Positions 2 through 46,393 are shown, counted from the stretch's first letter. The stretch: DNA of 64,000 bases from Segatella copri (GCA_963593685.1 CAVBBP010000003.1:3861-67860); one strand, 5' to 3'. Notes: generated by a model not told the origin, from the sequence alone. Numbers and translations: made by a program.

Positions 2-868
2 GAAGCCTCGCTGTCTATCGGCACAGTCATTGTCGATGGCGACCGCTACAAACTGACCAAAGCGGGCTGGTTTCTGCAAAACGACAAAGTGGTTCAAGCC
101 AACCTCGATTTCAATCACGATGTGAACTATCTCGGACTTTTCCGCCTTGACGAGGCTTTGAAAACGGGCAAACCTGCTGGTTTGAAAGTCTTTGGCGACT
201 GGCCGACCATCTACGAAGGGCTATCGAGTCTGCCCGAACAGGTGCAGAAAAGTTGGTTCGGGTTCGACCATTTCTACTCCGACAACTCGTTCGATGAGGC
301 TCTGCGTGTGGTTTTTGCCAACAAACCGCGCACGCTGCTCGATGTGGGCGGCAACACGGGTCGCTGGGCGTTGCGCTGCGTCGGCTTCGACAAAAATGTG
401 GAGGTTACCATTATGGATTTGCCGCAACAACTCGGCATGATGCGCCAAAAAACGGCTGGTCTCGAAGGTGCCGACCGCATACACGGTCACGGCGCAAACC
501 TGCTCGATGCCAGCGTGCCGTTCCCCGAAGGATTCGATGCCATTTGGATGAGCCAATTTCTCGATTGCTTCTCCGAAACGGAAGTAACGAGCATTTTGCA
601 GCGTGCCGCCGCCGCCATGAACGACGACACGCGCCTCTACATCATGGAAACTTTTTGGGACAGACAAAAATTTGAAACTGCCGCCTACTGCCTCACGCTC
701 ACCAGTCTCTATTTCACCGCATTGGCCAACGGCAACAGCAAAATGTACCACTCCGACGACATGGCGCGCTGCGTTGCCGCCGCTGGCTTGGAGGTGGAGC
801 AGATAATCGACGGCCTTGGACTCGGACACTCTATTATGGTGTGCAAAAAAAGTCGTAAGACTTTTTAA
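2..868 (+). CDS. class I SAM-dependent O-methyltransferase, 5' end outside window
   Basis: Reading frame is open from nt 2 (EASLSIGTVIVDGDRYKLTKAGWFLQNDK) straight into track ORF 89..868, so GTG-89 is not the real start; SAM motif I LLDVGGNTGRWA, acidic loop IMDLP; heads a KS/ACP cluster. Confidence 0.8.
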   Translation, partial: EASLSIGTVIVDGDRYKLTKAGWFLQNDKVVQANLDFNHDVNYLGLFRLDEALKTGKPAGLKVFGDWPTIYEGLSSLPEQVQKSWFGFDHFYSDNSFDEALRVVFANKPRTLLDVGGNTGRWALRCVGFDKNVEVTIMDLPQQLGMMRQKTAGLEGADRIHGHGANLLDASVPFPEGFDAIWMSQFLDCFSETEVTSILQRAAAAMNDDTRLYIMETFWDRQKFETAAYCLTLTSLYFTALANGNSKMYHSDDMARCVAAAGLEVEQIIDGLGLGHSIMVCKKSRKTF

Positions 869-1038
869 TTTCAGATTTCAGATTTCAAATTGTAGGGACG
901 CACCGAGTGCGTCCGAAACGCTTCAACAGTTCAACGATTCAACAAATAACTAGAAACATAGAAACAAAAATTGCGGTAGCAATTTTGAGAAACAATTAGA
1001 AACTAGAAACCAGAAACTAGAAACTCAAAAACCAACCA
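869..1038 (+). repeat. mosaic intergenic repeat block (modules e-g-h-i-j-k-l)
   Basis: TTTCAGATTTCAGATTTCAAATT, g hairpin at 896..914, CTTCAACAGTTCAACGATTCAAC, CATAGAAAC, AAAATTGCGGTAGCAATTTT hairpin, TAGAAACTAGAAACCAGAAAC; same order recurs in 2728..3113, 16952..17167, 38798..39148 and reverse-complemented in 12123..12403. Confidence 0.9.
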
Positions 1039-2727
1039 ATGTCCCGCCATTCGCAAATACCAGCCGTCTATTGGGTTGCCGATCAGATGATTTCGGCGCT
1101 CGGATTTGGTACCGACCAAAACGCTGCGCAGATTTTGGCGTACCAATCGGGCGTGGTGCGGCACAGCGATACGAGCATCAGCGAAACGCCGTTCATGGCA
1201 GGGCAGATCGATTGGCAGCAAATCCCCGAAAATGCCGCTCTTACGCGCTTGGAGCGTTTGATGATTTTCGTGGTCGAACGCCTCAAAAAACAGGTGCCAG
1301 CGGTCGATTTTGCGCGCGATGATGTCGGTTTTGTGCTTTCGACTACCAAAGGCAACATCGACCTTTTGCAGGAACAGGGTTTGACCGACAAACGCATTTT
1401 TCTGCCCAATCTTGCCAAAAAAGTTGCCGATTTTTGCGGCATCACCACAGAGCCAATCGTTATTTCAAATGCTTGTATATCAGGCGTTTCTGCGCTTATT
1501 GTGGCGGCGCGACTCATCGAAGAGCGGCGCTACAAGCACATTTTGGTTGTGGGCGGCGACTTGCTCACGCAGTTTGTGGTGTCGGGTTTTCAGTCCTTCA
1601 AGTCGGTGAGCGAAAAACTTTGCCGCCCTTACGATGCGGCGCGCGACGGTCTGTCGATGGGCGAGGCGTGTGGCGCGGTTCTGCTCTCGAGCGACGAAAA
1701 TCTGCGTGGAAATCAGCCAGTTACGATTCTTGGCGGCAGCATTACCAACGATGCCAATCACATTTCGGGGCCATCGCGCACAGGCGATGGGCTGCACTAC
1801 GCCATACGCAACGCCATGGCCGAGGCGCAAGTGGTTGCGGCAGATTTGGCGTTTGTGAGCGCACACGGCACAGCCACCATTTATAACGACGAAATGGAGA
1901 GTAAATCCCTGAATTTGAGCGATTTACTCGATATTCCGACCAGCAGTCTGAAACCCTATTTCGGCCACACACTTGGCGCGTGCGGCGTGATAGAGAGCAT
2001 TCTTTGCGTGTGGCAACTGCGCCACAAAATGCTCTTTGGTACGCTCGGATTTGAAACGCTCGGCGTGCCTTATCCGATAACGGTTTCGGCTGAACATCAG
2101 GCAATTACGCATGGCGACTGCTGTCTGAAAATTGCTTCGGGCTTTGGCGGCTGCAATGCGGCGATGGTGCTGAAATTGGGAGTGGGCGAAAAAGTGGCGA
2201 ACAAATGGGACGAGTGTGCCATTAGTGTGCAGAAATCGGTGATTTTGGCATCCAATCGCCCCTTTGCCGAGTTTATCCGCGACGAATACCGTGCGTTGAA
2301 TGCGCCGAACATCAAGTTTTTCAAGATGGACGACCAGTGCAAATTGGGCTATGTGGCTGTCGAAAAACTGCTGCAAGGCGTTGATTTAGAGGACGATAGC
2401 ACACGCACTGCCATTGTTGTAGCCAACCACGCCGCCTCGCTCGACACCGATTTGCGCCACCAGCAACTGCTCAATGCGCACGAACCTGTGTCGCCAGCCG
2501 TGTTCGTTTACACGCTGCCAAACATCGTGAGTGGCGAAATCTGCATTCGGCACCACATTCAGGGCGAAAACACCTTTTTTGTGCAGAACGCCCCCGACGG
2601 CTTCACTCGCCAATACGCCGAAAATTTGCTGTGCCGTCGCATCGCCGACCGCGTCATCGTTGGCTGGTGCGAACTGCTCGGCGACCACTATACCGCGAAA
2701 TTTGATCTTTTAAGTCGCAAGATATGA
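1039..2727 (+). CDS. beta-ketoacyl-ACP synthase (KAS I/II type) with C-terminal inactive KS-like extension
   Basis: Cys-His-His contexts ISNACISGVSAL, SAHGTATIYND, FGHTLGACG; about 170 extra C-terminal residues without a catalytic Cys; last codons and stop lie in repeat module a. Confidence 0.85.
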   Translation: MSRHSQIPAVYWVADQMISALGFGTDQNAAQILAYQSGVVRHSDTSISETPFMAGQIDWQQIPENAALTRLERLMIFVVERLKKQVPAVDFARDDVGFVLSTTKGNIDLLQEQGLTDKRIFLPNLAKKVADFCGITTEPIVISNACISGVSALIVAARLIEERRYKHILVVGGDLLTQFVVSGFQSFKSVSEKLCRPYDAARDGLSMGEACGAVLLSSDENLRGNQPVTILGGSITNDANHISGPSRTGDGLHYAIRNAMAEAQVVAADLAFVSAHGTATIYNDEMESKSLNLSDLLDIPTSSLKPYFGHTLGACGVIESILCVWQLRHKMLFGTLGFETLGVPYPITVSAEHQAITHGDCCLKIASGFGGCNAAMVLKLGVGEKVANKWDECAISVQKSVILASNRPFAEFIRDEYRALNAPNIKFFKMDDQCKLGYVAVEKLLQGVDLEDDSTRTAIVVANHAASLDTDLRHQQLLNAHEPVSPAVFVYTLPNIVSGEICIRHHIQGENTFFVQNAPDGFTRQYAENLLCRRIADRVIVGWCELLGDHYTAKFDLLSRKI

Positions 2728-3113
2728 GTAGCAAGTAGCAAGAAAAATTAGGAGTGAGGAATTAGGAGTGAGGAATCTTTAGTGAGAAGTGAGCAGTGAG
2801 CAGTGAGCAGTGATGCGGCAAAGCCGCAATTTCAAATTTTATTTGATTTTTGCTCCGCTCGGCATAGTTCAAACGAGTTTGACTCTGCGCTCGCTTGTCG
2901 CACAAATTCAGAATTTCAAATTGTAGGGACGCACCGAGTGCGTCCGAAACAGTTCAACGATTAAACGATTCAACAAATAACCAGAAACATAGAAACTTAG
3001 AAACAAAAATTGCGGCAGCAATTTTGAGAAACAATTAGAAACCAGAAATTAGAAATAACTTTTTCACTTTACACACTTTATAGACTTTCAACTTTATAAA
3101 CTTTCACACTATT
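2728..3113 (+). repeat. mosaic intergenic repeat block, longest colinear copy (a-b-c-d-f-e-g-h-i-j-k-l-m)
   Basis: GTAGCAAGTAGCAAG, TTAGGAGTGAGGAATTAGGAGTGAGGAA, AGTGAGAAGTGAGCAGTGAGCAGTGAGC, GATGCGGCAAAGCCGCAAT hairpin, divergent f core, g hairpin 2927..2945, k hairpin, ACTTT words running up to the ACP start codon. Confidence 0.9.
2836..2912 (+). repeat. f core copy 1 (most divergent)
   Basis: TTTTATTTGATTTTTGCTCCGCTCGGCATAGTTCAAACGAGTTTGACTCTGCGCTCGCTTGTCGCACAAATTC aligns by eye with five other copies. Confidence 0.8.
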
Positions 3114-3477: not shown

Positions 3478-3672
3478 TTGAAAGATTGGAAAGTTTGTAG
3501 GTTATAGTTTATAGTTTATAGTTTATAGACAAAAGAATAAAGAGTAAAGACAAAAGACCTAGGCTTTTCCCCCTTCGGGGGAAACGGGAAAGGGGGCTAC
3601 GACCATCACCAATGCGTTAAACCGATCAACCAATCAACTTTTCAACGACCAAATAACCAAATCCAAAAACTT
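3478..3672 (+). repeat. mosaic intergenic repeat block (n-o-p-q-i)
   Basis: GGTTATAGTTTATAGTTTATAGTTTATAGAC, AAAAGAATAAAGAGTAAAGACAAAAGAC, p module, AATGCGTTAAACCGATCAACCAATCAAC, AAATAACCAAATCC up to the GTG start of the next KS. Confidence 0.9.
3562..3600 (+). repeat. p module copy (5C/5G type)
   Basis: GGCTTTTCCCCCTTCGGGGGAAACGGGAAAGGGGGCTAC; TTTCCCCC pairs with GGGGGAAA around a TTC loop. Confidence 0.85.
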
Positions 3673-6290: not shown

Positions 6291-6292
6291 TT

Positions 6293-6951: not shown

Positions 6952-8136
6952 TTGAAGTTTTACTTTAACGACATAAAACAGCGTATCAAGAACCTGAATT
7001 GCGTGGTGCTGATACCGACCTACAACAACGCTGGCACGCTGTTGCAGGTTATTGACGCTGTGCGCCGCTACGCTACCGACATAATGGTGGTGAACGACGG
7101 CAGCACCGACAACACCGCCGCACTTTTGGCCGCCAAACCCGACCTGCACACCATCGGTTATGCACGCAATCGCGGTAAGGGCTATGCGCTGAAAATGGGT
7201 CTGCGCGAGGCAGCACGCTTGGGCTACGCCTACGCCATCACCATCGACAGCGATGGGCAGCACTATGCCGACGACATCGCCGTGTTTGTGGCGGCCGCCG
7301 AGCAGCAACCCGACACGCTTTTTGTGGGTGCGCGCAACCTGCAAGCCGAAAATATGCCGCAACGCAACACCTTTGCCAACCGCTTTTCAAATTTTTGGTA
7401 TTGGGCGGAAACTGGCATCAAACTCACTGATACACAGTCGGGTTTTAGGCTCTATCCGTTGGCGAAATTGGCAAAAATGCGCTTCATCACATCGCGCTAC
7501 GAATTTGAGGTGGAGGTGCTGGTGCGTGCCGCTTGGAAGGGCATAAAGGTCGCAAATGTGCCGATAAAAGTCTATTATCCGCCCGCCGCCGAGCGTGTGT
7601 CGCATTTCCGTCCAGCGCGCGATTTCACGCGAATTTCGCTGCTGAACACCTACTTGGTGCTTGTCGCTCTGCTGATTTATTATCCGTGGCGTTTTCTGCA
7701 CGCGCTCACATGGACGAATGTGAAGCGTTTTGTGCAGCGCAATATCACGCAGTCGCCCGAGAGCAACCTGCGTATGTCGCTGGCCATCGGGTTGGGCATC
7801 TGTTGCGGCATACTGCCTGCGTGGGGTTACCAAATGTGGATTGCGTTGGGCGTGGCGCAGGTGGCGCGGCTCAACAAAGTGCTGGCTGTGGTGGCGAGCA
7901 ACATCAGTGTGCCGCCCATGATTCCGTTCATTCTGTTTGGCAGTTACGCCATCGGTTGTCGCCTGTTGGGCAATCCTATTGCGCTGCTGTTCAGCGAAGT
8001 AACCTTCGACAGCGTGATGGTGAACCTGTGGCAATATCTGCTCGGCGCATGCGTGCTGGCACTACTGGCTGGCCTCGTGGCGTGGTTGATTAGTTGGGCA
8101 TTGTTGGGAATTTTTAGGAAAGGGAAGCGCAGATGA
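6952..8136 (+). CDS. family 2 glycosyltransferase fused to DUF2062-like membrane domain
   Basis: VVLIPTYNNAGTL, DSDGQH (DxD) in the first ~230 aa; multi-TM C-terminus; TTG start (no upstream ATG). Confidence 0.75.
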   Translation: MKFYFNDIKQRIKNLNCVVLIPTYNNAGTLLQVIDAVRRYATDIMVVNDGSTDNTAALLAAKPDLHTIGYARNRGKGYALKMGLREAARLGYAYAITIDSDGQHYADDIAVFVAAAEQQPDTLFVGARNLQAENMPQRNTFANRFSNFWYWAETGIKLTDTQSGFRLYPLAKLAKMRFITSRYEFEVEVLVRAAWKGIKVANVPIKVYYPPAAERVSHFRPARDFTRISLLNTYLVLVALLIYYPWRFLHALTWTNVKRFVQRNITQSPESNLRMSLAIGLGICCGILPAWGYQMWIALGVAQVARLNKVLAVVASNISVPPMIPFILFGSYAIGCRLLGNPIALLFSEVTFDSVMVNLWQYLLGACVLALLAGLVAWLISWALLGIFRKGKRR

Positions 8137-9179
8137 TAGAAAAAACGCACACATTTATAGACCTTTTTTCTGGTTGTGGAGGCATGTCCTTAGGATTTGA
8201 AATGGCTGGTTTTGAAAGTATTTTGGCCATAGATAATTGGGCAGACGCTTTGAATACATATAAGTACAACAGACATGGAGCAAAAACTCTCTGTGTGGAT
8301 TTGGCAAGTATAGAAACGGAAGATGTAGAAAATGCCATAAATGGTAAAAGGGTAGATGTGATTATTGGTGGTCCTCCGTGTCAAGGCTTTTCTGTTGCTG
8401 GAAAAAGAATTGTTGACGACGAACGAAATATACTCTATAAGAGTTTTGTTCGCATGGTTCAATATTTTCAGCCCAAAGCCTTTGTAATGGAAAATGTGCC
8501 AAACATTTTAAGTATTGGTAATGGGATCGTAAAAAAATCTATTTTAAGTGATTTCGAAAAGTTGGGATATACTGTGAAAGTGCAAGTATTGACGGCTTCT
8601 GATTATGGCGTACCACAAAATAGGCGACGCGCCGTGTTTGTTGGTCTACTAAATGGAAAAGAGTTTGAATTTCCTACACCCATTGTAGATGTTGCTAACC
8701 GCGTTACTGCTTACGAAGCGTTGGGCGACTTGCCAGAATACTCGCTGCTAGACGGTGCAGATTATCCTGTAGAAGCGAGTTGTGCCTATCAAACATATGT
8801 AAGAGCCGATAGCAAAGGCGTGTATAATCATGAAATAACAATTCATAATGAGCAAACAAAATCTATAATAGCGATGGTTCCCGATGGCGGCAATTACAAA
8901 GACTTACCTGTAGAATTGCAACAGACGAGAAAGGTGCATATCGCTTGGACAAGACTCAACAGCAAGAAACCGAGTTTTACAATAGATTGTGGACATAGGC
9001 ATCACTTCCATTATGAATGGAACAGGATTCCGACTGTTAGGGAAAGCGCAAGGCTACAGTCTTTCCCAGATGATATTATCTTTTTGGGTACAAAAACAAG
9101 CCAATATAAGCAAGTTGGTAACGCAGTACCTCCTTTAATGGCAAAATCAATAGCAGATCAATTAAATAAAATACTATGA
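8133..9179 (+). CDS. DNA (cytosine-5)-methyltransferase, RM subunit M1
   Basis: Motif I FIDLFSGCGGMSLGF, motif IV GGPPCQGFS, ENV, QNRRR, GNAVPP; AT-rich codons; ATGA overlap with the GT2 stop. Confidence 0.95.
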   Translation: MIEKTHTFIDLFSGCGGMSLGFEMAGFESILAIDNWADALNTYKYNRHGAKTLCVDLASIETEDVENAINGKRVDVIIGGPPCQGFSVAGKRIVDDERNILYKSFVRMVQYFQPKAFVMENVPNILSIGNGIVKKSILSDFEKLGYTVKVQVLTASDYGVPQNRRRAVFVGLLNGKEFEFPTPIVDVANRVTAYEALGDLPEYSLLDGADYPVEASCAYQTYVRADSKGVYNHEITIHNEQTKSIIAMVPDGGNYKDLPVELQQTRKVHIAWTRLNSKKPSFTIDCGHRHHFHYEWNRIPTVRESARLQSFPDDIIFLGTKTSQYKQVGNAVPPLMAKSIADQLNKIL

Positions 9180-11640: not shown

Positions 11641-12137
11641 CCTACGAAACCAAATACGCGTCGCCGTTGGGCGTGCTGGTGCTGCAGAGCGATGGTCGCT
11701 ATTTGACGCGCCTCTTTTTTGCTGATTCGCACGCTGCCGTGAAGGGCGGGGTGCAGGTCGAAGAGAAACGCCTCCCGATTTTTGAGCAAACAGTCCGCTG
11801 GCTCGACATCTATTTTGGTGGCGCAGTGCCCGATTTCACGCCCGAATACCGCATCGAAGGGAGCACGCCTTTTCGGCAGCAGGTGTTGCAGTTGGTGTGC
11901 CAAATTCCATACGGCCAAACGGCGACCTACGGCGATTTGGCGCAGCAGATAGCCGCCGCAAACGGCCTCGAAAAGATGTCGGCGCAGGCGGTGGGTGGCG
12001 CAGTTGGCTGGAATCCCATCTGTCTTGTAGTGCCGTGCCACCGCGTGGTCGGCGCACACGGCAACCTGACGGGCTACCGCGGCGGCCTCGCACGCAAAAA
12101 GCAGTTGCTGGACTTGGAAAGAGTAGAAAGTGTGTAA
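11637..12137 (+). CDS. ogt: methylated-DNA-protein-cysteine methyltransferase
   Basis: IPYGQTATYGDLA and active-site VPCHRVVG; GC returns to host level exactly at its ATG (ATGA overlap with M2 stop). Confidence 0.9.
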   Translation: MTYETKYASPLGVLVLQSDGRYLTRLFFADSHAAVKGGVQVEEKRLPIFEQTVRWLDIYFGGAVPDFTPEYRIEGSTPFRQQVLQLVCQIPYGQTATYGDLAQQIAAANGLEKMSAQAVGGAVGWNPICLVVPCHRVVGAHGNLTGYRGGLARKKQLLDLERVESV

Positions 12138-12403
12138 AGTTTATAAAGTAAAAAGTGTGTAAAGTGTGTAAAGTTATTTCTAATTTCTAGTTTCTAATTT
12201 CTAATTGTTTCTCAAAATTGCGGCAGCAATTTTTGTTTCTAGGTTTCTGGTTATTTGTTGAATCGTTTAATCGTTGAACTGTTGAAGCGTTTCGGACGCA
12301 CTCGGTGCGTCCCTACAATTTGAAATCTGAAATTTGAAATTCTGTCATTGCGGCTCTGCCGCATCACTCCTCACTCCTAATTCCTAACTCCTCACTCAAA
12401 AAC
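12123..12403 (-). repeat. mosaic repeat block, reverse complement of the 2728..3113 order (m-l-k-j-i-h-g-e-d-b)
   Basis: GTAGAAAGTGTGTAAAGTTTATAAAGT starts inside the last ogt codons; g hairpin 12294..12312 as GGACGCACTCGGTGCGTCC; ends CACTCCTCACTCCTAATTCCTAACTCCTCACTC just before ATG 12404. Confidence 0.9.
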
Positions 12404-20489: not shown

Positions 20490-20969
20490 ATGAACGGCAA
20501 CATCAAAAAGACCAATGTGGCGCGGCTGCTCGATGCGCACAAAATCGCCTATCGCCTGATTGCATACGACCCTGGCGAGGTGGAGTTGGGTGCGCAGCAT
20601 GTGGCCGACCAACTGGGCGAACCCATCGAGCGTGTGTTCAAAACGCTGGTGCTGAAAGGCGACCGCAACGGTCATTTTGTCTGCGTCGTTCCCGGCAACA
20701 AGGAGGTCGATTTGAAACTGGCCGCCAAACTTTCGGGCAACAAAAGTTGCGACCTCATTCCTGTGAAAGACCTGCTCGGACTCACGGGTTACATTCGTGG
20801 CGGCTGCTCGCCCATCGGCATGAAAAAGCATTTTCCCACATTCCTACACGAGAGTTGCACCGATTTTCCAACGATTTTCGTCAGTGCAGGCATGCGTGGT
20901 CTTCAAGTCGAAATCGCCCCAGCGGATTTGCAACACATCACCGATGCCACCGTTTGCAGACTTTTTTAA
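20490..20969 (+). CDS. ybaK: Cys-tRNA(Pro)/Cys-tRNA(Cys) deacylase
   Basis: MNGNIKKTNVARLLD..., FKTLVLKGD, GGCSPIG; the track start 20376 overlaps yigZ in another frame. Confidence 0.85.
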   Translation: MNGNIKKTNVARLLDAHKIAYRLIAYDPGEVELGAQHVADQLGEPIERVFKTLVLKGDRNGHFVCVVPGNKEVDLKLAAKLSGNKSCDLIPVKDLLGLTGYIRGGCSPIGMKKHFPTFLHESCTDFPTIFVSAGMRGLQVEIAPADLQHITDATVCRLF

Positions 20970-21195
20970 TGAGTGAGGAATTAGGAATTAGGAGTGAGGA
21001 ATTTTTTAGTGAGAAGTGAGCAGTGAGAAGTGAGCAGTGAGGCGGCGAAGCCGCAATGACAGATTTCAGATTTCAGATTTCAAAATTTCAAATTTCAGAA
21101 TTTCAAATTGTCGGATTAACCAACTCATCAAATAACCAAATAACCAAATAACCAAATCAACGATTCAACGCTTCAACAGTTCAACAATAAAAAAA
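20968..21195 (+). repeat. mosaic repeat block (b-c-d-e-i-h)
   Basis: TGAGTGAGGAATTAGGAATTAGGAGTGAGGAA, AGTGAGAAGTGAGCAGTGAGAAGTGAGCAGTGA, GGCGGCGAAGCCGC hairpin, (ATTTCAG)n, (AAATAACC)3, TTCAACG words. Confidence 0.9.
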
Positions 21196-23923: not shown

Positions 23924-24251
23924 AGCGGCAAAGCCGCGATTTCAGATTGTTAGTAGCAAGATATGAGTAGCAAGAAGAGATTTTAAGAAGATAGAACATA
24001 GAACATAGACTATGACAACTTGAAACTTGAAGTCCTGAAACTCTGAATTTCTGAAACTTGAAACACAGAAACAGCGCGCAGCGACGACCAACTGCAGAAA
24101 GTTGTGGCGTGCGAAACTTTATGAACTTTATAACTTTATAAACTTGATGAACTTCTGATCAACCAATCAACTAATCAACTGATCAACTAATCAACTAATC
24201 AACCCAATCTGTAACTCTAAAACTTGAAACAATAAGAAAAACAAACAAAAT
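23924..24251. repeat. mosaic repeat block (d-a-n-u-j-m-q)
   Basis: AGCGGCAAAGCCGCG hairpin directly after the stop; AGTAGCAAGATATGAGTAGCAAG 23952..23974; AGATAGAACATAGAACATAGAC; CTGAAAC words; AACTTTAT words; (CWAATCAAC)n. Confidence 0.85.
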
Positions 24252-28685: not shown

Positions 28686-28960
28686 CAGAATTTCAAATTT
28701 CAGAATTTTTAGTCGCAAGATGTGAGTAGCAAGTCGCAAGACAAGTGAGGAATGAGGAATTAGGAGTGAGGAATTTTTTAGTTAGAAGTGAGAAGTGGAA
28801 AACTAAGACGAAAACTTTTGATTAAGACCAAAGGCCTTTCCCCCTCTCGGGGGAAACGGGAAAGGGGGCTACAACTAGAAATAAACCTCACAGACTTTCC
28901 ACAATGCGTTAAACTTATCAACCAATCAACCAATCAACCAATCAACCAGAAATAAAAAAC
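28686..28960 (+). repeat. mosaic repeat block (e-a-b-c-o-p-q)
   Basis: AGTCGCAAGATGTGAGTAGCAAGTCGCAAG 28711..28740, GAGGAATGAGGAATTAGGAGTGAGGAA, p module, AAATAAACCTCACAGAC, AATGCGTTAAACTTATCAACCAATCAACCAATCAACCAATCAACC. Confidence 0.9.
28833..28872 (+). repeat. p module copy (5C/5G type)
   Basis: GGCCTTTCCCCCTCTCGGGGGAAACGGGAAAGGGGGCTAC. Confidence 0.85.
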
Positions 28961-32230: not shown

Positions 32231-33511
32231 ATGAAAAAGATTTGGACTATTGTGGCAGCAATGGCGGCGACGCTTTGCGCCACGGCACAAAACAGTGAAA
32301 ATGGCCACGAGTGGGTCGATCTCGGTCTGCCGAGCGGCCTGAAATGGGCAACAATGAATGTGGGCGCAACCACGCCCGAAGGTTATGGAAATGCCTACGC
32401 TTGGGGCGAAACCGAACCGAAAACAAGGTACGATTTCACAACCTACAAATACGGCGACGGCACAACTTTTAGCAAGTACAACAGTACCGACGGCAAAGAG
32501 GTGCTCGACCTCGAGGACGACGCTGCACGAGTGAATTGGGGTGGCTCGTGGCGCATGCCTACCGCTGCCGATTTTGAAGAACTTTTGAACAACTGCACAT
32601 GGATTTACAACGAATCCAATGGCGGTTACACGGTGCAGGGGAGCAATGGTAACACCATTTTTTTGCCGAAAACGAACTTCTACTATGGCACGAATCCGTC
32701 TGATTGGGCAGGTTTCTACCGCACAAGTAATTTGAGCGACACTCAATGGAAAGCGTCCAAGTATTTTGCCCATTGGGATCCTGAATGGGGACAGAACGGT
32801 ATTGCTGCTATTGATATTGAGCGTGGACACGGCATGGCGGTGCGTCCAGTCTGCATTCCCACCAAGTGGTACGCTGTAGAGGTTAAAACCGATTTGGAAG
32901 GTGGCTCTGTTACTGCCGATTTTCTAAAAGCCAAAGAGGACGACCTCGTTACGCTGACCATCGCACCTGCCAGTGGCTACGAACTCGCCAAAATCGAGGT
33001 AAAAGACGCTGACAACCAAGCAGTTGAACTCAACGGCAACAAATTTACCATGCCAGCAAGCGCAGTTACGGTGCGTGCCGAGTTTGTGAAAACGAATTAC
33101 ACCATTACCGTTGCTGAAATCGAAAATGGCACTGTGGAAGCCAACCACCAAACGGCGCAACTCGGCGACGAAATTACGCTGACCATCAAAGCCGCTACTG
33201 GCTACGAACTTGCCAAAATCGAGGTAAAAGACGCTGACAATCAAGCGGTTGAACTTGACGGCGACAAATTTACCATGCCAGCCAGCGCAGTTAAGGTGAG
33301 TGCGGTATTCAAACGCCAAACGCCCACTTCGCTCCAAAGTGCGGAAACGGTCGCTATCTACACCGAAAACGGCCGCATTGTCTGTGAGCAGGAGTTCCGC
33401 ATCTACGACCTATTCGGTCACGATGTTACACGCATGAATGGTTCGCTGAACGGTGTTTATATCGTGAAATTTGGAGAGAAGGCGCAGAAAGTGATTGTTA
33501 GTCGCAAGTAG
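32231..33511 (+). CDS. T9SS-secreted surface protein (lectin-like N-domain, two tandem beta-repeat domains, C-terminal sorting domain)
   Basis: Signal peptide MKKIWTIVAAMAATLCATAQ; SWRMPTAADFEELL as in FISUMP/DUF1566-type domains; two ~75-aa repeats GYELAKIEVKDADNQAVEL.G.KFTMPASAV; tail NGVYIVKFGEKAQKVIV typical of a T9SS CTD. Confidence 0.7.
   Translation: MKKIWTIVAAMAATLCATAQNSENGHEWVDLGLPSGLKWATMNVGATTPEGYGNAYAWGETEPKTRYDFTTYKYGDGTTFSKYNSTDGKEVLDLEDDAARVNWGGSWRMPTAADFEELLNNCTWIYNESNGGYTVQGSNGNTIFLPKTNFYYGTNPSDWAGFYRTSNLSDTQWKASKYFAHWDPEWGQNGIAAIDIERGHGMAVRPVCIPTKWYAVEVKTDLEGGSVTADFLKAKEDDLVTLTIAPASGYELAKIEVKDADNQAVELNGNKFTMPASAVTVRAEFVKTNYTITVAEIENGTVEANHQTAQLGDEITLTIKAATGYELAKIEVKDADNQAVELDGDKFTMPASAVKVSAVFKRQTPTSLQSAETVAIYTENGRIVCEQEFRIYDLFGHDVTRMNGSLNGVYIVKFGEKAQKVIVSRK
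32951..33294 (+). repeat. intragenic tandem duplication (two ~119-nt near-identical segments 225 nt apart)
   Basis: 32951..33069 and 33176..33294 share ACGCTGACCATC...GGCTACGAACTYGCCAAAATCGAGGTAAAAGACGCTGACAAYCAAGC...AAATTTACCATGCCAGC. Confidence 0.85.
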
Positions 33512-33940
33512 CAAGAAGCAAGTAGCAAGAAAAGATTTTTAGAACATAGAAGATAGAACATAGATTGTAGAGCCGTCACAATGTGGCGGCTCTGCTGTTT
33601 TTTGTTATGCAGAAGGCGCTGGGAACCGCCTAATTCGCTACGCGCCCAACAACATCACACAATTCAAAATTCTTAATTGGATGCAATTCTGTCCCCCTGC
33701 TTGAAGCGAAGCGGAAAGATAGGGGGACGAGCGAAGCGGAGGGGGTTGAAAAATCAAATCTCCAAATAACCAAATCCACAAATCACCAAAAAAGGACGTG
33801 GCATGCCGCGTCCCTACTTTCAACTTTATGAACTTTACAAACTTTCCACTTTATAGACTTTATACACTTTCAAACTTTCAAACTTTCCACACTTTACAAA
33901 CTTTTTCCGAAAAACATTTGGTGGTTACGAAAGAAAAGCG
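33499..33940. repeat. mosaic repeat block (a-n-r-p variant-i-g variant-m)
   Basis: TAGTCGCAAGTAGCAAGAAGCAAGTAGCAAG covers the stop codon; palindrome GGACGTGGCATGCCGCGTCC 33794..33813; a long ACTTT-word array ends at the rpsO promoter. Confidence 0.85.
33567..33603 (+). terminator. intrinsic terminator of gene 32231..33511
   Basis: GTAGAGCCG-TCACAATGTGG-CGGCTCTGC followed by TGTTTTTT. Confidence 0.7.
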
Positions 33941-34324: not shown

Positions 34325-34565
34325 GTGCCGCCATCGCCGCTTGTGTTAATTTTTTTTGTAACTTTGTGCTTTTATTAGTCGCAAGATGTGAGTAGCAAGA
34401 TAAATTAGGAGTTAGGAATGAGGAATGAGGAGTTTTTTTAGTGAGAAGTTAGAAGTGAATTTAATTACCCAATTATCTAATTTCCAATTATTTAATTAAT
34501 TTTTGGAAGCGTTTTGGAATGCGAAAACTCATAATTCAAAATTCATAATTCATAATTTCCCAAAA

Positions 34566-34606
34566 GGCTTTTCCCCTTTTGGGAAAACGGGAAAAGAGGC
34601 CGTAAC
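34566..34606 (+). repeat. p module copy (4C/4G type)
   Basis: GGCTTTTCCCCTTTTGGGAAAACGGGAAAAGAGGCCGTAAC. Confidence 0.8.
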
Positions 34607-34623
34607 CAGAAACTAGAAATTAG

Positions 34624-34688
34624 AATTTTTTCGATAAGCGAGCGCAGTGCCAAACTCGTTTGAGCAATGCCGAGCGGAGAAAAAATCT
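34624..34688 (-). repeat. f core copy 3
   Basis: AATTTTTTCGATAAGCGAGCGCAGTGCCAAACTCGTTTGAGCAATGCCGAGCGGAGAAAAAATC. Confidence 0.9.
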
Positions 34689-34786
34689 ATAAATTAGAAA
34701 TAAACCTCACAGACCCTTATTGATGCGTTAAACTAATCAACTCATCAACCAATCAACTCATCAACCAAAAATTAAACCAACCACTT

Positions 34787-36603: not shown

Positions 36604-38811
36604 ATGAAAAAATACGACTGGAAATTTTCGCAAGTGGGCGGTGTGCCGCGTGTTAGAATAGAAACGGGCAGCGATATTGCCCATTTGGGCGAACTCGACC
36701 AAAAAATGTGGACGGTTTTGAGTTGCCCTGTGAAAGGACTCGAAATCGACGAACGCACGCTCGAACTGATGGACAGCGACCACGACGGCAAAATTCGTGT
36801 ACACGAGGTTGTTGCTGCTTCCAAATGGCTTACTTCGGTGCTTGTCAATCCCGATTTGTTGCTGAAACAGAGCAGCACGCTGCGCCTAATCGACATCAGC
36901 CAAAAGAGCGACGACGGCAAAAAAATCTACCATTCGGCCAAAGAGATTTTGAAAAATCTTGGATTGGAGAAGGAGGAGATTAGCCTTGCCGACATCGCCG
37001 ACCGCACCGCCATTTTTGCCAAAACGCAATTCAATGGCGATGGCGTTATCACCGCACAATCGACCGACGACGAAGCCGCCCAAAACGCCATTGCCGCCTG
37101 CATTCAGACCATTGGCGCGACGCCAGACCGCAGCGGAATTGACGGCGTAACGGCCGAACAAATCGCGGCGTTTTATACCGCACTTGCCGACTATGCCGCA
37201 TGGAATGCTAGTCGTTGCGACTTGCCCTACGGCGACAATACCGAAGTCGCCTTGTCGGCCTACAATGCCTTGAAAGAGAAGATTGACGACTACTTTGTGC
37301 GCTGCAAATTGGCGGCGTTCAATGCGTCGGCATTGGCCACGCTCGATGTGTCGCTGGAGCGAATCGAAAACGCCAATGAAAAAAATCTGACCGCCTGCAT
37401 GGACGAGATTGCCGCACTGCCGTTGGCACGCATCGCTGCGGCTGGACTGCCGTGCGAAGGCGGTATCAATCCTGCGTGGGAGAGCGCATTCGCAGCACTG
37501 AAACAGTTGGTTTTCGATGTCGATTTTCCGCACGCAAAAGTCATCAGCGAGGCCGAATGGCAGCAGGTGGCCGACAAATTTGCGCCTTACATCGCTTGGA
37601 AAGCCGCCAAAAAAGGCGATGCCGTGGAGCCGCTCGGACTTGATGCTGTGACGAAACTGCTAAAACAGGACAAAAAAGCCGATTTGCTCGCTCTCGTCGA
37701 GAACGACAAGGCGTTCGAAGGCGATGCCGATGCCATCGAACTGGTGGACAAACTGCTGCACTTGTGCCGCGATTTCTACACGCTGTTGCGGAATTTTGTA
37801 ACCTTCGCCGATTTTTATGTGCGCGACACAAACAAAAAAGCCATTTTTCAGGCAGGTACGCTCTATATCGACCAACGCAGTTGCGATTTGTGCCTAAAAG
37901 TGGCAGATATGGGGCGGCACAACACAATGGCGGCCGCCAGCGGTATGTTCCTGATCTATTGCGACTGCTATTCGAAGCAAAAAGACCAAACAATGAGCAT
38001 TGTGGCGGTGATGACCAGCGGCGATGTGAACAACCTGACCGTGGGCAAAAACGCCGTTTTCTACGACCGCGATGGCCTCGACTGGGACGCCACTGTAACC
38101 AAAATTGTCGATAACCCGATAAGCATCGGGCAGGCGTTTTGGTCGCCCTACCGCAAATTTGGCAAATTCATCGAAGAGCAAATCAACAAATTTGCCGCCG
38201 AGAAAGATAACAAACTCACGGGCGAAGTTACGGGTAAAATCTCCGAATCGACCGAAAAAATGGCCACTGCCGATGTGGCCGCCACGCCGCCCGCCGACAA
38301 AAAAACGCAGGCGTTCGACATCGCCAAATTCTGTGGTATCTTTGCTGCCATCGGCATGGCGTTGGGCTATATTGGCGGATTTTTGGTGTCGTGCGTTACA
38401 GGCTTCCTCGCCCTCGCTTGGTGGCAGATGCCGCTCGCACTGATTGCTATCATGCTGCTCATTTCGGGGCCGTCGATGATTATGGCGTGGCTCAAACTGC
38501 GCCGCCGCAATCTGTCACCGCTGCTCAACGCCAACGGCTGGGCGGTGAACTCGAATGTGCCTGTGAACATACTCTTTGGTGCAACGCTCACCAAAACGGC
38601 CGCCTTCCCCAAACTCAATCTGAAAGACCCATTTGTCAAACGCGGTATGCCGACATGGCGCAAAGTGCTCTACATTGTGCTGGCTGCCATCGTAGTGCTG
38701 CTGACCGTGCTGTACTTCACCGACATGCTCGCATGCGTTGGGCTGCCATTCCACCACGCCGCCGCCGATGTTGTAGAGCAAGCGGCAATGGACAGTATTA
38801 GTAGCAAGTAG
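36604..38811 (+). CDS. large uncharacterised protein with an N-terminal EF-hand loop and C-terminal TM helices
   Basis: Canonical 12-residue loop DSDHDGKIRVHE (nt 36772..36807); hydrophobic segments FCGIFAAIGMALGYIGGFLVSCVTGFLALAWW, LALIAIMLLISGPSMIMAWL, VLYIVLAAIVVLLTVLYF; I recognise no catalytic motif. Confidence 0.7.
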   Translation: MKKYDWKFSQVGGVPRVRIETGSDIAHLGELDQKMWTVLSCPVKGLEIDERTLELMDSDHDGKIRVHEVVAASKWLTSVLVNPDLLLKQSSTLRLIDISQKSDDGKKIYHSAKEILKNLGLEKEEISLADIADRTAIFAKTQFNGDGVITAQSTDDEAAQNAIAACIQTIGATPDRSGIDGVTAEQIAAFYTALADYAAWNASRCDLPYGDNTEVALSAYNALKEKIDDYFVRCKLAAFNASALATLDVSLERIENANEKNLTACMDEIAALPLARIAAAGLPCEGGINPAWESAFAALKQLVFDVDFPHAKVISEAEWQQVADKFAPYIAWKAAKKGDAVEPLGLDAVTKLLKQDKKADLLALVENDKAFEGDADAIELVDKLLHLCRDFYTLLRNFVTFADFYVRDTNKKAIFQAGTLYIDQRSCDLCLKVADMGRHNTMAAASGMFLIYCDCYSKQKDQTMSIVAVMTSGDVNNLTVGKNAVFYDRDGLDWDATVTKIVDNPISIGQAFWSPYRKFGKFIEEQINKFAAEKDNKLTGEVTGKISESTEKMATADVAATPPADKKTQAFDIAKFCGIFAAIGMALGYIGGFLVSCVTGFLALAWWQMPLALIAIMLLISGPSMIMAWLKLRRRNLSPLLNANGWAVNSNVPVNILFGATLTKTAAFPKLNLKDPFVKRGMPTWRKVLYIVLAAIVVLLTVLYFTDMLACVGLPFHHAAADVVEQAAMDSISSK

Positions 38812-38875
38812 CAAGACGAGTGAGGAGTTAGGAGTGAGGAGTGATGCGGCGGAGTTGCAATTTCAGATTTCAAAT

Positions 38876-38947
38876 TTTATTTGATTTTTGCTCCGCTCGG
38901 CATTGCTCAAACGAGTTTGGCACTGCGCTCGCTTATCGCAAAAATTC
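38876..38947 (+). repeat. f core copy 4
   Basis: TTTTATTTGATTTTTGCTCCGCTCGGCATTGCTCAAACGAGTTTGGCACTGCGCTCGCTTATCGCAAAAATT. Confidence 0.9.
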
Positions 38948-39082
38948 AGAATTTCAGATTCCAAATTGTAGGGACGCACCGAGTGCGTCCGAACGCTTCA
39001 ACAGTTCAACAATTCAACGATTAACCAAATAACCGAATAACCAAATCAACAAATAACCAGAAACTAGAAACCAGAAATTAGA

Positions 39083-39117
39083 AAAAAATAAGGACGCACT
39101 CGGTGCGTCCTTATTTT
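39083..39117. terminator. bidirectional intrinsic terminator between convergent genes
   Basis: AAAAAAATAAGGACGCAC-TCGG-GTGCGTCCTTATTTT: the g hairpin extended to a 13-bp stem, with an A-run on one side and a T-run on the other; lies between 36604..38811(+) and pepD(-). Confidence 0.75.
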
Positions 39118-39148
39118 CTACTTTACAAACTTTATAAACTTTCTACTT

Positions 39149-40606
39149 TCAACTTTTCACTGGAATGGCTTCGAGGGTGGCGACGATGAAGCGCCAGAAG
39201 CGTTCGACGCTGGCGATGTTCACCTTTTCGTCGGGCGTGTGAGGGTGGCGCATCGTGGGACCGACCGACACCATATCCAAACGCGGCTCGGTGGCACCGA
39301 TGATACCGCACTCCAAACCAGCGTGTACCACGCGCACTACGGCTGGCTTGCCAAACTCTTTTTGATAGACATCGGCCATCGTTTTCAGTATGGGCGAGTC
39401 CATGTTTGGATTCCAGCCCGAATAGCCGCCCGAAAATTCCACTTTGGCACCAGCCAACGCAAACACGCTCTCGATCATCGAGGCGAGTTCCTCTTTTTTG
39501 CTATCGACCGAACTGCGCAGCAAGCATCTCACGCTGATGTCGGTGCTGTTGGCCACAACGATGGAGAGGTTCGTCGAGGTTTCGACCGTGTCGGGAATCT
39601 CTGGAATCATGCGGAAAACGCCATTGGGACACGCCGTTACAGCGTTCACAAAGTCGTCTTGTATCTCTTCGGGAATGAGCGCGTTGGGCAGTTCCACTTG
39701 GCGCACTTCGACAAAAATGCCGTTTTCGATGGCTTTGTATTCGTCGTTGAATGTTTCGGCGTACTCTTCGGCCAGTTTTTCAATCTCTTTTTTATTGTCG
39801 GCAGGGATTGTAATCACGGCTTTGGCTTCGCGCGGAATGGCGTTGCGCATATTGCCGCCTTCGACCGACGCCAAACGCGCTTCGTACTGCATAATCGCCT
39901 CTTTCAGAAAACGGAAGAGCAGTTTGTTGGCATTGGCGCGACCACAGTCGATTTCGAGTCCCGAATGGCCGCCTTTGAGCCCTTTTACAAGAATTTCGAG
40001 CGCAATGTCGTCGTCGGGAACGGGTGCACTGTTGAATTTCCAAGTCATATCGGCATCGAGTCCGCCAGCGCAACCGACATAGAGTTCGCCTTCGTCCTCC
40101 GAGTCCATATTCAGCAGAATATCGCCTTGCAGCAGCCCCGCTTCCATGCCGAATGCACCCACCATGCCAGTCTCTTCGTCGATGGTGAAAAACGCTTCGA
40201 TTGGACCGTGTTTCAACTCTTTGCTTTCGAGCACGGCCATGGCTGCTGCCACACCGATGCCGTCGTCAGCGCCGAGTGTAGTGCCATCGGCTGTAACCCA
40301 ATCGCCGTCGATGTAGGCTGTGATGGGGTCTTTGACAAAATCGTGCTGTTTGTCGCTATTTTTTTGCGGCACCATGTCGAGGTGTGCTTGCAGCACCACT
40401 GGCGTGCGGTTTTCCATGCCGGGCGTGGCAGGTTTGCGTATCAGCACGCTGCCCGTCTTATCGACAATGGTTTCCAAACCAAGCGCATGGCCAAAATCGA
40501 CCATAAATTTCGTTACTGCCTCCATGTGGTGCGACGGACGCGGCACTTGCGTCAGTTTGTAGAAGTTGCTCCACAGGGCTTTCGGTGCCAATTCTCGAAT
40601 TTCCAT
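39149..40606 (-). CDS. pepD: aminoacyl-histidine dipeptidase (M20 family)
   Basis: MEIRELAPKALWSNFYKLTQVPRPSHHME start typical of PepD; HLDMV, GADDGIGVA, DEETGM metal ligand contexts; ATG 40606 preferred to the track start 40693. Confidence 0.85.
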   Translation of the reverse strand: MEIRELAPKALWSNFYKLTQVPRPSHHMEAVTKFMVDFGHALGLETIVDKTGSVLIRKPATPGMENRTPVVLQAHLDMVPQKNSDKQHDFVKDPITAYIDGDWVTADGTTLGADDGIGVAAAMAVLESKELKHGPIEAFFTIDEETGMVGAFGMEAGLLQGDILLNMDSEDEGELYVGCAGGLDADMTWKFNSAPVPDDDIALEILVKGLKGGHSGLEIDCGRANANKLLFRFLKEAIMQYEARLASVEGGNMRNAIPREAKAVITIPADNKKEIEKLAEEYAETFNDEYKAIENGIFVEVRQVELPNALIPEEIQDDFVNAVTACPNGVFRMIPEIPDTVETSTNLSIVVANSTDISVRCLLRSSVDSKKEELASMIESVFALAGAKVEFSGGYSGWNPNMDSPILKTMADVYQKEFGKPAVVRVVHAGLECGIIGATEPRLDMVSVGPTMRHPHTPDEKVNIASVERFWRFIVATLEAIPVKS

Positions 40607-40639
40607 AGTTTGTTCTCTTTTTTTTGACTGATTACAGCG

Positions 40640-40647
40640 CAAAGGTA
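40640..40647 (-). promoter_or_regulatory. -7 box TACCTTTG for pepD
   Basis: CAAAGGTA on +, 34 nt upstream of ATG 40606. Confidence 0.55.
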
Positions 40648-40700
40648 GTAAAAAAAGAGAAATCGGCGCGCATTTTATCGATATTTTTTGCAAAAAAATG

Positions 40701-42043: not shown

Positions 42044-42358
42044 GATTATTTGAAAATTTGAAGATTGCGGCGTTTCAACAGAAAGGACGTGGCATGCCGC
42101 GTCCCTACAACCTGAAACTTGAAACAGTGCGCAGTGCGAGAATTTTTGCGATAAGCGAGTGCAGTGCCAAACTCGTTTGAGCAATGCCGAGCGGAGCAAA
42201 AATCTTGCGAAGCAAAAACATAGAAACAAAAATTGCGTCAGCAATTTTGAGAAACCAAAAATAAACCTCACAGACCCTTATTGATGCGTTAAACTTATCA
42301 ACTTATCAACTCATCAACTGATCAACCAACTTTTCAACACTTTTTTACTTTCAACAAA
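42044..42358. repeat. mosaic repeat block (t-g variant-u-j-f reversed-j-k-q-m)
   Basis: TTTGAAAATTTGAAGATTG; palindrome GGACGTGGCATGCCGCGTCC 42085..42104; reversed f core; AAAATTGCGTCAGCAATTTT; AAATAAACCTCACAGACCCTTATTGATGCGTTAAAC plus CAAC words. Confidence 0.9.
42140..42204 (-). repeat. f core copy 5
   Basis: GAATTTTTGCGATAAGCGAGTGCAGTGCCAAACTCGTTTGAGCAATGCCGAGCGGAGCAAAAATC. Confidence 0.9.
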
Positions 42359-44850: not shown

Positions 44851-44862
44851 CAGCAGAAAAAT

Positions 44863-44871: not shown

Positions 44872-44919
44872 AATTTCAAAAAAGATATAAACAACCAAAC
44901 ACTACATTTTTTTAGGACG

Positions 44920-46308
44920 ATGATGACACCCCAAGAGTTGTGGAACAGATGTTTGAAGGTAATCAAGGACAACATACCCGATGCCGCCTATGCGACATGG
45001 TTTGAACCGATTGTCCCGCTGAAGTACGAAAACGGCGAGTTTGTGCTGCAAGTGCCGAGCATGTTTTTCTACGAATATATCGAAGAGAAATTTGCCGAAC
45101 TGCTGCGCGTAACGCTCTACCGCGAGGTGGGGCAGGGCACAAAACTGCTCTACCAAATCCGTGTGGACAAAGCCTCGACCACAACGCTTCCGTCGGCCAG
45201 CCAAAATGCTGTAGAAACCGTGCCAGAACAGGTGCGCTCCATCATCAACGACCCGTTCCAGCGCGTGGTGCAAAAGGAGATTGACCCACAGTTGAACGCC
45301 GCCTACAGTTTCAACACCTACATCGAGGGGGCGAGCAACAAACTGGCGCGCGCCGCTGGCGTGAGCATCGCCAACGAACCGGGCAAAACCATCTTCAACC
45401 CGTTGTTTCTTTACGGAAAATCGGGCGTGGGCAAAACGCACTTGGTAAACGCCATCGGCATCATGGCCAAGCAACTCTATCCCGAAAAACGCGTGCTGTA
45501 TGTCTCGGCAAATCTGTTCCAAATTCAATACACCGACGCTGTGCGCCGCAACGAGCAGAACGATTTTCTGAACTTTTACAGCAATATCGATGTGCTGATT
45601 TTGGACGATATTCACGAGTTTATGGACAAGGTGGGCACGCAGAAGACATTCTTCAACATATTCAACCACCTGCACCAAAACGGCAAGCAGATAATCATGA
45701 CTTGCGACCGTGCGCCGGGCTCGCTCGAAGGCATGGAAGAACGGCTGCTCACACGCTTCAAATGGGGCTTGAGTGCCGAAATAGAGATGCCCGATTTCGA
45801 ACTGCGCAAAGCCATTCTGAAGAGCAAAATATACAAAGACGGACTCGAAGTGCCCGAAGAGGTGATCGACTATATCGCCGAAAATGTAACCGACAGCGTG
45901 CGCAACCTCGAAGGCGTGCTGGTGTCGCTGCTGGCGCACGCCACGCTCACCGACGAAGATATCGACCTTGCTTTGGCCGAAAAAGTTGTGGGCAAAGTGG
46001 TGGCTCCCGCCAACAATGTCATTTCGGTGGAGAAAATCAGAGATATGGTGTGCGACTATTTTGCGCTGCCGCTCGAAGCGTTCATGTCGAAAACACGCAA
46101 ACGCGAAATCGCTACGGCGCGGCAGGTGGCGATGTACCTGTCGAAACAGTACACCAAAAGTTCGCTCTCGGCCATCGGCAAACTGATTGGCGGCCGCGAC
46201 CACGCCACCGTGCTCCACGCTTGCGGCGTAGTGAACGACCTGATGGACACCGACAAAAGTTTCCGCATGAGCGTAAAAGAACTCGAACAACAACTGCTGA
46301 AGAATTAG
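44920..46308 (+). CDS. dnaA: chromosomal replication initiator protein DnaA
   Basis: NPLFLYGKSGVGKTHL Walker A, LILDDIH, C-terminal HTH DHATVLHA; 462 aa. Confidence 0.97.
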   Translation: MMTPQELWNRCLKVIKDNIPDAAYATWFEPIVPLKYENGEFVLQVPSMFFYEYIEEKFAELLRVTLYREVGQGTKLLYQIRVDKASTTTLPSASQNAVETVPEQVRSIINDPFQRVVQKEIDPQLNAAYSFNTYIEGASNKLARAAGVSIANEPGKTIFNPLFLYGKSGVGKTHLVNAIGIMAKQLYPEKRVLYVSANLFQIQYTDAVRRNEQNDFLNFYSNIDVLILDDIHEFMDKVGTQKTFFNIFNHLHQNGKQIIMTCDRAPGSLEGMEERLLTRFKWGLSAEIEMPDFELRKAILKSKIYKDGLEVPEEVIDYIAENVTDSVRNLEGVLVSLLAHATLTDEDIDLALAEKVVGKVVAPANNVISVEKIRDMVCDYFALPLEAFMSKTRKREIATARQVAMYLSKQYTKSSLSAIGKLIGGRDHATVLHACGVVNDLMDTDKSFRMSVKELEQQLLKN

Positions 46309-46393
46309 GAGTGAGGAATTAGGAGTGAGGAGTGAGGCGGCAGAGCCGCAGAATTTCAGATTTCAGATTTCAGATTTCAAATTTCAGAATTTC

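Follow-up and report, generated by a model that had tools for sequence, protein, structure and literature searches.

A 64-kb stretch of DNA assigned to Segatella copri (GCA_963593685.1, CAVBBP010000003.1:3861-67860; hereafter the window, meaning the whole stretch that was analysed) carries in its intergenic spacers a mosaic of short tandem repeats and hairpins. This mosaic runs over the 3′ ends of several genes and supplies their stop codons and last residues. The overlap is real, statistically solid and supported by orthologues, and alignments with relatives show that in most of the 11 overlapped genes the ancestral stop codon and the last one to five codons have been replaced. We think it probable that the mosaic overwrites these gene ends as a tolerated by-product and not through a new mechanism.

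Gene ends and the repeat mosaic

The gene-end survey covered all 51 genes of the window; Pfam and NCBIfam profile matches gave the gene identities so marked in the list below. A look-up for sequences identical to the window's DnaA yielded none. In homologue searches, the nearest relatives were uncultured, gut-associated Paludibacteraceae (Bacteroidales); the window also encodes a sorting domain of the type IX secretion system (T9SS). We compared the syntenic loci of these relatives, numbered here with an L. The mosaic is present in L001, L002 and L003 (ketosynthase, KS, 94%, 90% and 80% identical to that of the window), in L008 (DnaA 97%), in L130 and in several contigs of the "H07xxx-L1" set of metagenome-assembled genomes (MAGs). 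It is absent at the compared loci of L004–L007 (DnaA 86-89%), L127 and L128 (KS 75% and 67%) and L129.

As a measure of overlap, a position was counted as covered if it lay in an 11-mer found again in intergenic DNA, on either strand, 60 nt or more away; expected counts for the ends of coding sequences (CDS) were taken from CDS interiors. The last 7, 11 and 14 nt of the CDS, stop codon included, were fully covered in 12, 7 and 5 of the 51 genes, against 1.2, 0.38 and 0.07 expected (P 2.5e-9 to 1e-7; about 1e-7 at 11 nt). By the same measure 2, 0 and 0 of the 51 5′ ends were covered, and repeat-word coverage inside CDS stayed at background (0.7% of positions at 11 nt). At other loci of the lineage, the window's intergenic 11-mers covered 11 of 76 crudely called open reading frame (ORF) ends, against 1% in the control (P 4e-10); in mosaic-free relatives they covered 1 of 68. 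Of the 18 genes that mosaic follows directly, 11 have their stop codon inside repeat-derived sequence, and in mosaic-flanked genes without overlap most junctions fall within about 5 nt of the stop. The choice of 11-mers with interior controls was made because 9- and 10-mers were too noisy, covering 15-36% of coding sequence by chance. Two other tests were set aside: a longest-exact-match test restricted to CDS gave modest enrichment but flagged A-rich 5′ ends too, and a comparison of how far away the next stop lies in downstream regions with and without mosaic was confounded by downstream genes.

The genes concerned are the following (Pfam/NCBIfam assignment in brackets).

89-868: FlxJ-family O-methyltransferase gene, OMT (Pfam/NCBIfam)
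1039-2727: ketosynthase gene, KS (Pfam/NCBIfam)
11637-12137: ogt (Pfam/NCBIfam)
end at 20969: ybaK (Pfam/NCBIfam)
21196-21429: thioredoxin-like protein gene (Pfam/NCBIfam)
32231-33511: T9SS cargo gene with T9SS type A sorting domain (Pfam/NCBIfam)
36604-38811: gene for a 735-aa protein, without family match
39149-40693, minus strand: pepD/M20
44920-46308: dnaA (Pfam/NCBIfam)
59854-61227: hisS

The repeats fall into modules, lettered a to g in the order in which they occur in a composite of about 400 nt that is set out in the next section. They meet the gene ends at these places.

851..891, plus strand: OMT tail SRKTF, which lies past the end of the FlxJ profile, TAA stop and start of an ATTTCAG array
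2713..3113, plus strand: reference composite copy (a, b, c, hairpin, d, H2, d, H1, e, f, hairpin, f, g)
12122..12403, minus strand: inverted composite copy in the spacer between ogt and an MMPL gene; its 9-nt array end lies over the last ogt codons and TAA (12123-12137)
20958..21195, plus strand: composite copy from module b, directly past the ybaK TAA
21427..21443, plus strand: module a; its edge TAG is the stop of the thioredoxin-like gene
33497..33531, plus strand: module a over the last codons (V)SRK and TAG of the T9SS cargo gene
38796..39160: single composite between convergent genes; its a-end lies over SSK and TAG of the 735-aa gene (plus strand)
38796..39160, same copy: its 9-nt-array end lies over the last codon and TGA of pepD/M20 (minus strand)
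46303..46520, plus strand: composite copy from module b; AATTAG forms the dnaA Asn codon and stop
61209..61249, plus strand: 8-nt array GTTGATNA over the last hisS codons (..GLMS) and TGA

All strings quoted in an earlier sequence-only reading of this DNA were recovered where it had placed them, and the overlaps or abutments that it described for the T9SS cargo, 735-aa, dnaA, ogt, thioredoxin-like and ybaK genes have the sequences given there; the pepD/M20 gene, which runs into a 9-nt array, and hisS, which runs into an 8-nt array, are additional cases. Across the series, the place where a C-terminus departs from its orthologues or family profile coincides with the start of the repeat to within a codon or two (profile ends were compared for OMT, ogt, hisS, pepD and the T9SS sorting domain), and none of the repeat-free orthologues of KS, dnaA, the 735-aa gene and the T9SS cargo carries the same tail.

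The KS gene ends AGT CGC AAG ATA TGA inside AGTCGCAAGATATGAGTAGCAAGTAGCAAG, the first 15 nt of the 2713-3113 copy being its last four codons and TGA. These 15 coding nt, together with more than 15 nt downstream, are common to four intergenic copies. In an alignment of 60 orthologues, the conserved core ends ..F[DE]LL; after it come between 1 and about 15 residues without conservation, in most cases 2-5 (TL, ETT, KRK). The tail SRKI, from module a, is found in the window, L001 and L003; in L002, the 90% relative, the tail is VKTIDN and comes from another tandem word, ACAATTGATAATTG, present in two copies and followed by module a. The OMT tail switches with the adjoining repeat between the same two relatives: SRKTF in the window, VRS in L002, where the TAG stop lies inside an AGTGAGA/AGTTAGC array. 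SRKTF is extra sequence, because the FlxJ profile stops at residue 254 of 259. The 9-nt word AGTCGTAAG, which the sequence-only reading assigned to module a, matches at only 8 of 9 bases, but the adjoining downstream word AAGACTTTTT recurs in intergenic DNA at 30190 and the tail lies beyond the profile.

In the window and in L008, dnaA ends ..ELEQQLLKN with its TAG in an AATTAGG unit (the first one, in the window), and at the junction the two differ by exactly one 7-nt unit; in the mosaic-free L004–L007 it ends ..ELEQRLKG, followed by TAA and unique DNA. The 735-aa gene ends ATT AGT AGC AAG TAG (..DSISSK), against ..DSVSAAN (TGA) in L129 and ..DSISSTTN (agt agc aca aca aat TAG) in L130. Because L130 has agt agc aca, the first AGTAGCA of the window is best read as ancestral coding sequence, with the junction at microhomology. 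At the other end of the same composite, pepD ends ..IPVKS TGA and continues into AAGTAGAAAG.., whereas in L008 it ends ..IPVKG TAA with no array. The T9SS cargo gene ends GTT AGT CGC AAG TAG, position 71 of the 72 in TIGR04183 falling at V423 of 426; mosaic-free homologues of the sorting domain end ..QKV[IV]V[RK], and the cargos of this lineage ..VSRK or ..VSSK. For ogt, whose last codons lie within a 9-nt array (12122-12174 in Tandem Repeats Finder, TRF), the profile stops at residue 161 of 166, and the tails RVESV (window) and RRKSL (L002) are both in 9-nt arrays. The hisS profile stops at residue 441 of 457; array sequence makes up the last five codons, and the same array also ends another gene, with ..KKLMS before its stop, in L113.

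Two genes have, by their profiles, undergone no rewriting, the repeat only abutting the gene or donating its stop. The ybaK TAA abuts TGAGTGAGG and the stop-spanning AGACTTTTTTAA is also found at 30191; the YbaK profile reaches residue 158 of 159, so that nothing has been added to the protein. The thioredoxin-like gene takes its TAG from the edge of TAGTCGCAAGTCGCAAG, and the profile reaches residue 75 of 77. The acyl carrier protein (ACP) gene served as a control: in the window unique sequence and a terminator-like hairpin precede any mosaic, elsewhere no mosaic follows it, and its end, ..ANRTK or ..KNRTK, is kept in all lineages.

The sequence-only reading had laid stress on module a meeting genes four times in the same reading frame. 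The word AGTMGCAAG occurs 22 times, against 0.85 expected, and the long-form word at the KS end is indeed also intergenic, at three direct positions and one inverted position:

23952..23974, plus strand: module a, long form, intergenic
28711..28740, plus strand: module a, long form, intergenic, 26 nt past a stop codon
32138..32167, minus strand: module a, inverted, intergenic
34377..34399, plus strand: module a, intergenic, 107 nt past rpsO, beyond the rpsO terminator

The frame is as that reading described, and little weight attaches to it. In module a (TTAGTMGCAAGTAGCAAG), one frame stops at the edge TAG, adding zero residues, as in the thioredoxin-like gene; in the short form another frame reads through, and only the AGT frame yields S-R/S-K residues and a stop. 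In the long form all three frames are closed within 23 nt (stop offsets 12, 16 and 23 nt). The common S-R/S-K frame thus follows from the stop-codon layout of module a, indicates no frame-aware mechanism and is weak evidence for one. In a tally of about 15 loci, short of the genome-wide count that had been proposed, the AGT frame of module a is used across lineage loci by KS, by two or three T9SS cargos, which are not independent because they share a paralogous sorting domain, by the 735-aa gene and by a polyA-polymerase/HD-type gene in L078, probably a CCA-adding enzyme. An M3 peptidase gene in L047 enters module a in another frame (..QSQDMSSK, then stop). An ORF ending in module a in L067 looks like a spurious antisense ORF and was dropped.

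An ordered composite in the spacers

TRF finds the spacers full of tandem arrays with periods of 7, 8 and 9 nt, together with a few unique hairpins. We aligned all mosaic spacers to the KS-ACP spacer copy at 2713-3113. All align colinearly with it, in one orientation or the other and with truncations at the 5′ end or internally, so that the modules prove to be pieces of a single composite of about 400 nt, with the following order.

1: module a, TTAGTMGCAAG..
2: module b, AATTAGG AGTGAGG
3: module c, AGTGAGA AGTGAGC
4: small GCGGC..GCCGC hairpin
5: module d, ATTTCAG
6: H2, a unique piece of about 70 nt
7: module d, second time
8: hairpin H1, GGGACGCACCGAGTGCGTCC
9: module e, TTCAACNN
10: module f, TAGAAAC
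11: AATTGCGGCAGCAATT hairpin
12: module f, second time
13: module g, 9-nt array AAAGTNTNT; the reference copy has its reverse complement, ACTTTNNNN

Copies are full-length or truncated, with variably truncated ends, and occupy the spacer between the stop codon upstream and a point about 6-20 nt short of the next start codon. The point at which the composite is entered at the stop codon differs among genes: module a at KS, the T9SS gene and the 735-aa gene, module b at dnaA and ybaK, and module d at OMT and a gene ending at 16951. Hairpin modules such as GGGACGCACCGAGTGCGTCC and GCGGCnnnGCCGC are present but form a minority of the composite. No terminal inverted repeats join the a-end and the g-end in the two full copies compared, and the composite matches no Rfam family.

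Several further repeats accompany it. A non-tandem module of about 70 nt (TTTGATTTTTGCTCCGCTCGGCAT.G.TCAAACGAGTTTGGCACTGCGCTCGCTTATCGCAAAAATTC), optional in the composite, has six copies, at 2836-2905, 38883-38950 and 46394-46460 and, inverted, at 32045-32115, 34631-34700 and 42150-42215. A conserved hairpin module of about 40 nt, GGCTTTTCCCCCTTCGGGGGAAACGGGAAAGGGGGCTAC, lies outside the reference composite and also has six copies, in both orientations (3560-3600, 28830-28870, 30400-30440, 34570-34610, 46560-46600 and 61265-61300). Other longer-period repeats occupy promoter-proximal spacers: a 32-nt unit repeated 3.9 times at 49215-49339 (AAAATATGTAAAATAAGGCGTTGTGATTCGCT) and a 33-nt unit repeated twice at 54280-54346.

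Many mosaic spacers lack the Bacteroidetes promoter box TAnnTTTG, which non-mosaic spacers show. Because the flanking genes run on one strand and the box is missing in many of the spacers, the mosaics are probably intercistronic and transcribed within these same-strand gene runs. Canonical −7 boxes (TAcCTTTGCA) were seen at 31810, 33950, 42365, 44870, 47780, 54370 and 59790, in non-mosaic DNA just upstream of some genes. Module b is rich in AGGAG/GAGG. In the phylum to which the Bacteroidales belong, initiation led by a Shine-Dalgarno sequence is largely lacking.

Turnover of the mosaic and competing explanations

Within the material compared, the composite was found only in one Paludibacteraceae lineage, and there it differs widely among close relatives. 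The KS-ACP spacer measures 386 nt in the window and 13-29 nt in the mosaic-free L127 and L128; the dnaA-miaA spacer measures 450 nt, against 83 nt in L004. Spacers of the window and L002 cannot be aligned despite 90% identity of the coding sequence, and at two further orthologous spacers the modules of L001 differ from those of L003; altogether, four of six orthologous spacers have been wholly replaced.

Other differences among these loci involve inserted genes. A 3.5-kb insertion of 38% GC lies at 8133-11640, between a glycosyltransferase gene and ogt, and codes for a BpuJI-like restriction endonuclease along with two C5 cytosine DNA methylases. L001 and L002 lack this insertion, and in them the stop of GT2 overlaps the start of ogt. 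In L128 another restriction-modification insertion, of DpnII type, sits at a different place in this operon. Mosaic-bearing contigs of the H07xxx-L1 MAG set (L047, L078, L118, L067, L093 and L106) are binned as Acutalibacteraceae, Erysipelotrichaceae or Leyella stercorea, and at least L118 encodes a Bacteroidota-type T9SS cargo protein. Since repeats fragment assembly, these contigs are probably mis-binned.

How the overlaps arise can be outlined from these comparisons. Translation would end at the TAG, TGA or TAA carried by the first repeat units, and the residues replaced would be the unconstrained ones past the last conserved position. Each additional 7- or 8-nt unit changes the reading frame, so that an array containing a stop triplet closes all three frames within three units, or about 7-8 codons. 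By this reasoning, running into an array should cost few residues, which gives a simple ground for tolerance. The sequence-only reading had left a choice between elements that insert at or over 3′ ends and rewrite C-termini, and elements that spread by conversion up to the stop. The rewriting is borne out; as to insertion or conversion, there are signs of slippage (dnaA), of whole-block replacement and of a microhomology junction. We infer that whole blocks are acquired or replaced, sometimes at microhomology as in the 735-aa gene, and that single units may afterwards be gained or lost by slippage.

It is scarcely credible that the overlap is coincidental, native C-termini merely resembling repeat words, for instance through functional, basic SRK tails. 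The OMT word with its 8 of 9 matching bases, the ybaK and thioredoxin-like profiles that run to the last residue, and the ancestral first AGTAGCA of the 735-aa gene would each fit coincidence, and C-terminal residues also vary where there are no repeats, as in orthologues of miaA and of an amidase gene. Coincidence is nevertheless largely refuted by the enrichment in the window and at other loci, missing at 5′ ends and in mosaic-free relatives, by the sequence that KS shares with intergenic copies on both sides of its stop, and by tails that are absent from repeat-free orthologues and switch with the adjoining repeat. Very improbable, too, is the reverse derivation, in which gene ends were the source and local tandem duplication of their terminal sequence gave rise to the repeat units. 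The window's AGTAGCA AGTAGCA AG does resemble a duplication of the 735-aa gene's own heptamer, given the array-free agt agc aca.. of L130, and the ancestral pepD sequence GTGAAAGGT resembles the 9-nt unit. Microhomology at a recombination junction accounts equally well for the 735-aa case, however; the same words stand in the same order at unrelated sites without a gene end (23952, 34377 and, inverted, 32138), and what comes after the array, the remainder of the composite (b, hairpin, d and so on), cannot stem from local duplication.

A functional cis-element sited at stop codons, an RNA or DNA signal for termination, ribosome release, mRNA 3′-end stability or intercistronic processing, would make the ORF overlap a consequence of its required position. 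[quoted passage not shown] We hold it to be rather unlikely, because copies stand in both orientations relative to the flanking genes, four of the six orthologous spacers hold entirely different modules, relatives at 86-89% DnaA identity do without the mosaic, no Rfam family matches and the raised identity reaches into flanking genes in the manner of a recombination tract. The closely allied proposal that the composite is an undescribed, actively exchanged intercistronic cassette, targeted to stop sites and acting in cis on termination, ribosome release or mRNA fate, we judge improbable. If it were true, the rewritten C-termini would be the footprint of targeting, and a sequence under selection would account for the spacers conserved between the window and L003.

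Those spacers are among the points that weigh against a tolerated by-product. In comparison with L003, the OMT-KS (869-1038) and KS-ACP (2728-3113) spacers of the window show about 96% identity, against about 79% for the flanking coding sequence and about 63% for its third codon positions. Such identity could mean that the mosaic is under selection and has a function instead of being passive filler, and we first took it as purifying selection. The identity is also raised for about 100-150 nt into the flanking genes, as for a recombination tract, and four of six spacers have been replaced. We therefore prefer, to long-term purifying selection, an account in which homologous recombination has recently exchanged segments that bear the mosaic, and consider recent recombination at least as likely a cause of the 96%. 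Also among these points, no transposase family was found among the part of the window's ORFs that was scanned with Pfam, no RAYT-like gene was seen in the window, and the composite lacks terminal inverted repeats. ORF calls in the relatives' loci are crude, and some covered ends there are low-complexity or spurious ORFs. Finally, that the overlap is a side effect, and a tolerated one, is something we infer from sequence comparison.

As a tolerated by-product, the overlap offers an orthologue-checked case in which non-coding repeat DNA has repeatedly replaced the stop and last residues of the housekeeping genes dnaA, hisS, pepD and ogt with no apparent harm. In practical terms, C-terminal differences between close relatives, fragmented assemblies and apparent mis-binning in these Paludibacteraceae may be traced to the mosaic. 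The composite itself is a more interesting object than the overlap, and merits a genome-wide description.

Comparison with known repeat families

The composite fully matches the definition of none of four groups: short tandemly repeated repetitive (STRR) sequences, REP and bacterial interspersed mosaic elements (BIMEs), mycobacterial interspersed repetitive units (MIRUs) and Rickettsia palindromic elements (RPEs).

The STRR sequences of cyanobacteria consist, like the arrays described here, of tandem 7-nt units in non-coding DNA, often near gene ends and with hairpins possible where copies are inverted; in the window, TRF confines period-7 arrays to spacers. To our knowledge, overlap of STRR sequences with stop codons has not been described. 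A scan of a genome collection with AGTMGCAAGTMGCAAG gave matches dominated, among those listed, by unrelated phyla, with many cyanobacteria. In Nostoc, Waterburya and Calothrix there are STRR-like arrays of exactly the units seen here, (GTCGCAA)n and (GTAGCAA)n; one heptamer array, in L039, begins 4 nt past a stop codon. Such arrays also occur in Rivularia and Hyella, often as inverted pairs (L009-L126, among the matches listed); examples lie at 2563-2601 and 3073-3098 of L039 and at 1510-1555 and 1653-1680 of L015. STRR sequences, whose function is unknown (PMC2670836), differ from the present mosaic in their hosts, which are (filamentous) cyanobacteria and not Bacteroidales, and in being simple heptamer runs, whereas the heptamer arrays described here belong to an ordered composite of about 400 nt, together with 8- and 9-nt arrays and unique hairpins. 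A limited literature search returned no description of an ordered composite of STRR-like arrays outside cyanobacteria.

REP sequences and BIMEs, as well as the neisserial intergenic mosaic elements (NIMEs) and pneumococcal BOX elements, are extragenic, mostly intercistronic or 3′ of genes, and stand in either orientation. Like the composite, they are assembled from a handful of motifs in fixed orders, include hairpin modules and vary in copy number. Many REPs lie 1-20 nt from the upstream stop, with effects on translation reported for those closer than 16 nt (PMC12306157). Their blocks are GC-rich palindromes of 20-40 nt that sit a few nt past the stop, whereas the composite is built mainly of 7-9-nt tandem arrays and crosses the stop codon.

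MIRUs are tandem repeats in operon spacers whose ends overlap adjacent genes (PMC3184786, citing Supply et al. 1997). Their units are 40-100 bp long and contain small ORFs reaching from the stop codon of one gene across to the start codon of its neighbour; in the mosaic the units measure 7-9 nt, only the upstream stop is overlapped (7-12 of 51 genes, against 0 of 51 at 5′ ends) and the arrays end about 6-20 nt before starts.

[quoted passage not shown] MITEs have terminal inverted repeats, unlike the two full copies of the composite that were checked. RPEs are elements of about 150 bp lying in frame inside ORFs, where they add an internal peptide, whereas the mosaic described here reaches only the last 1-5 codons and the stop.

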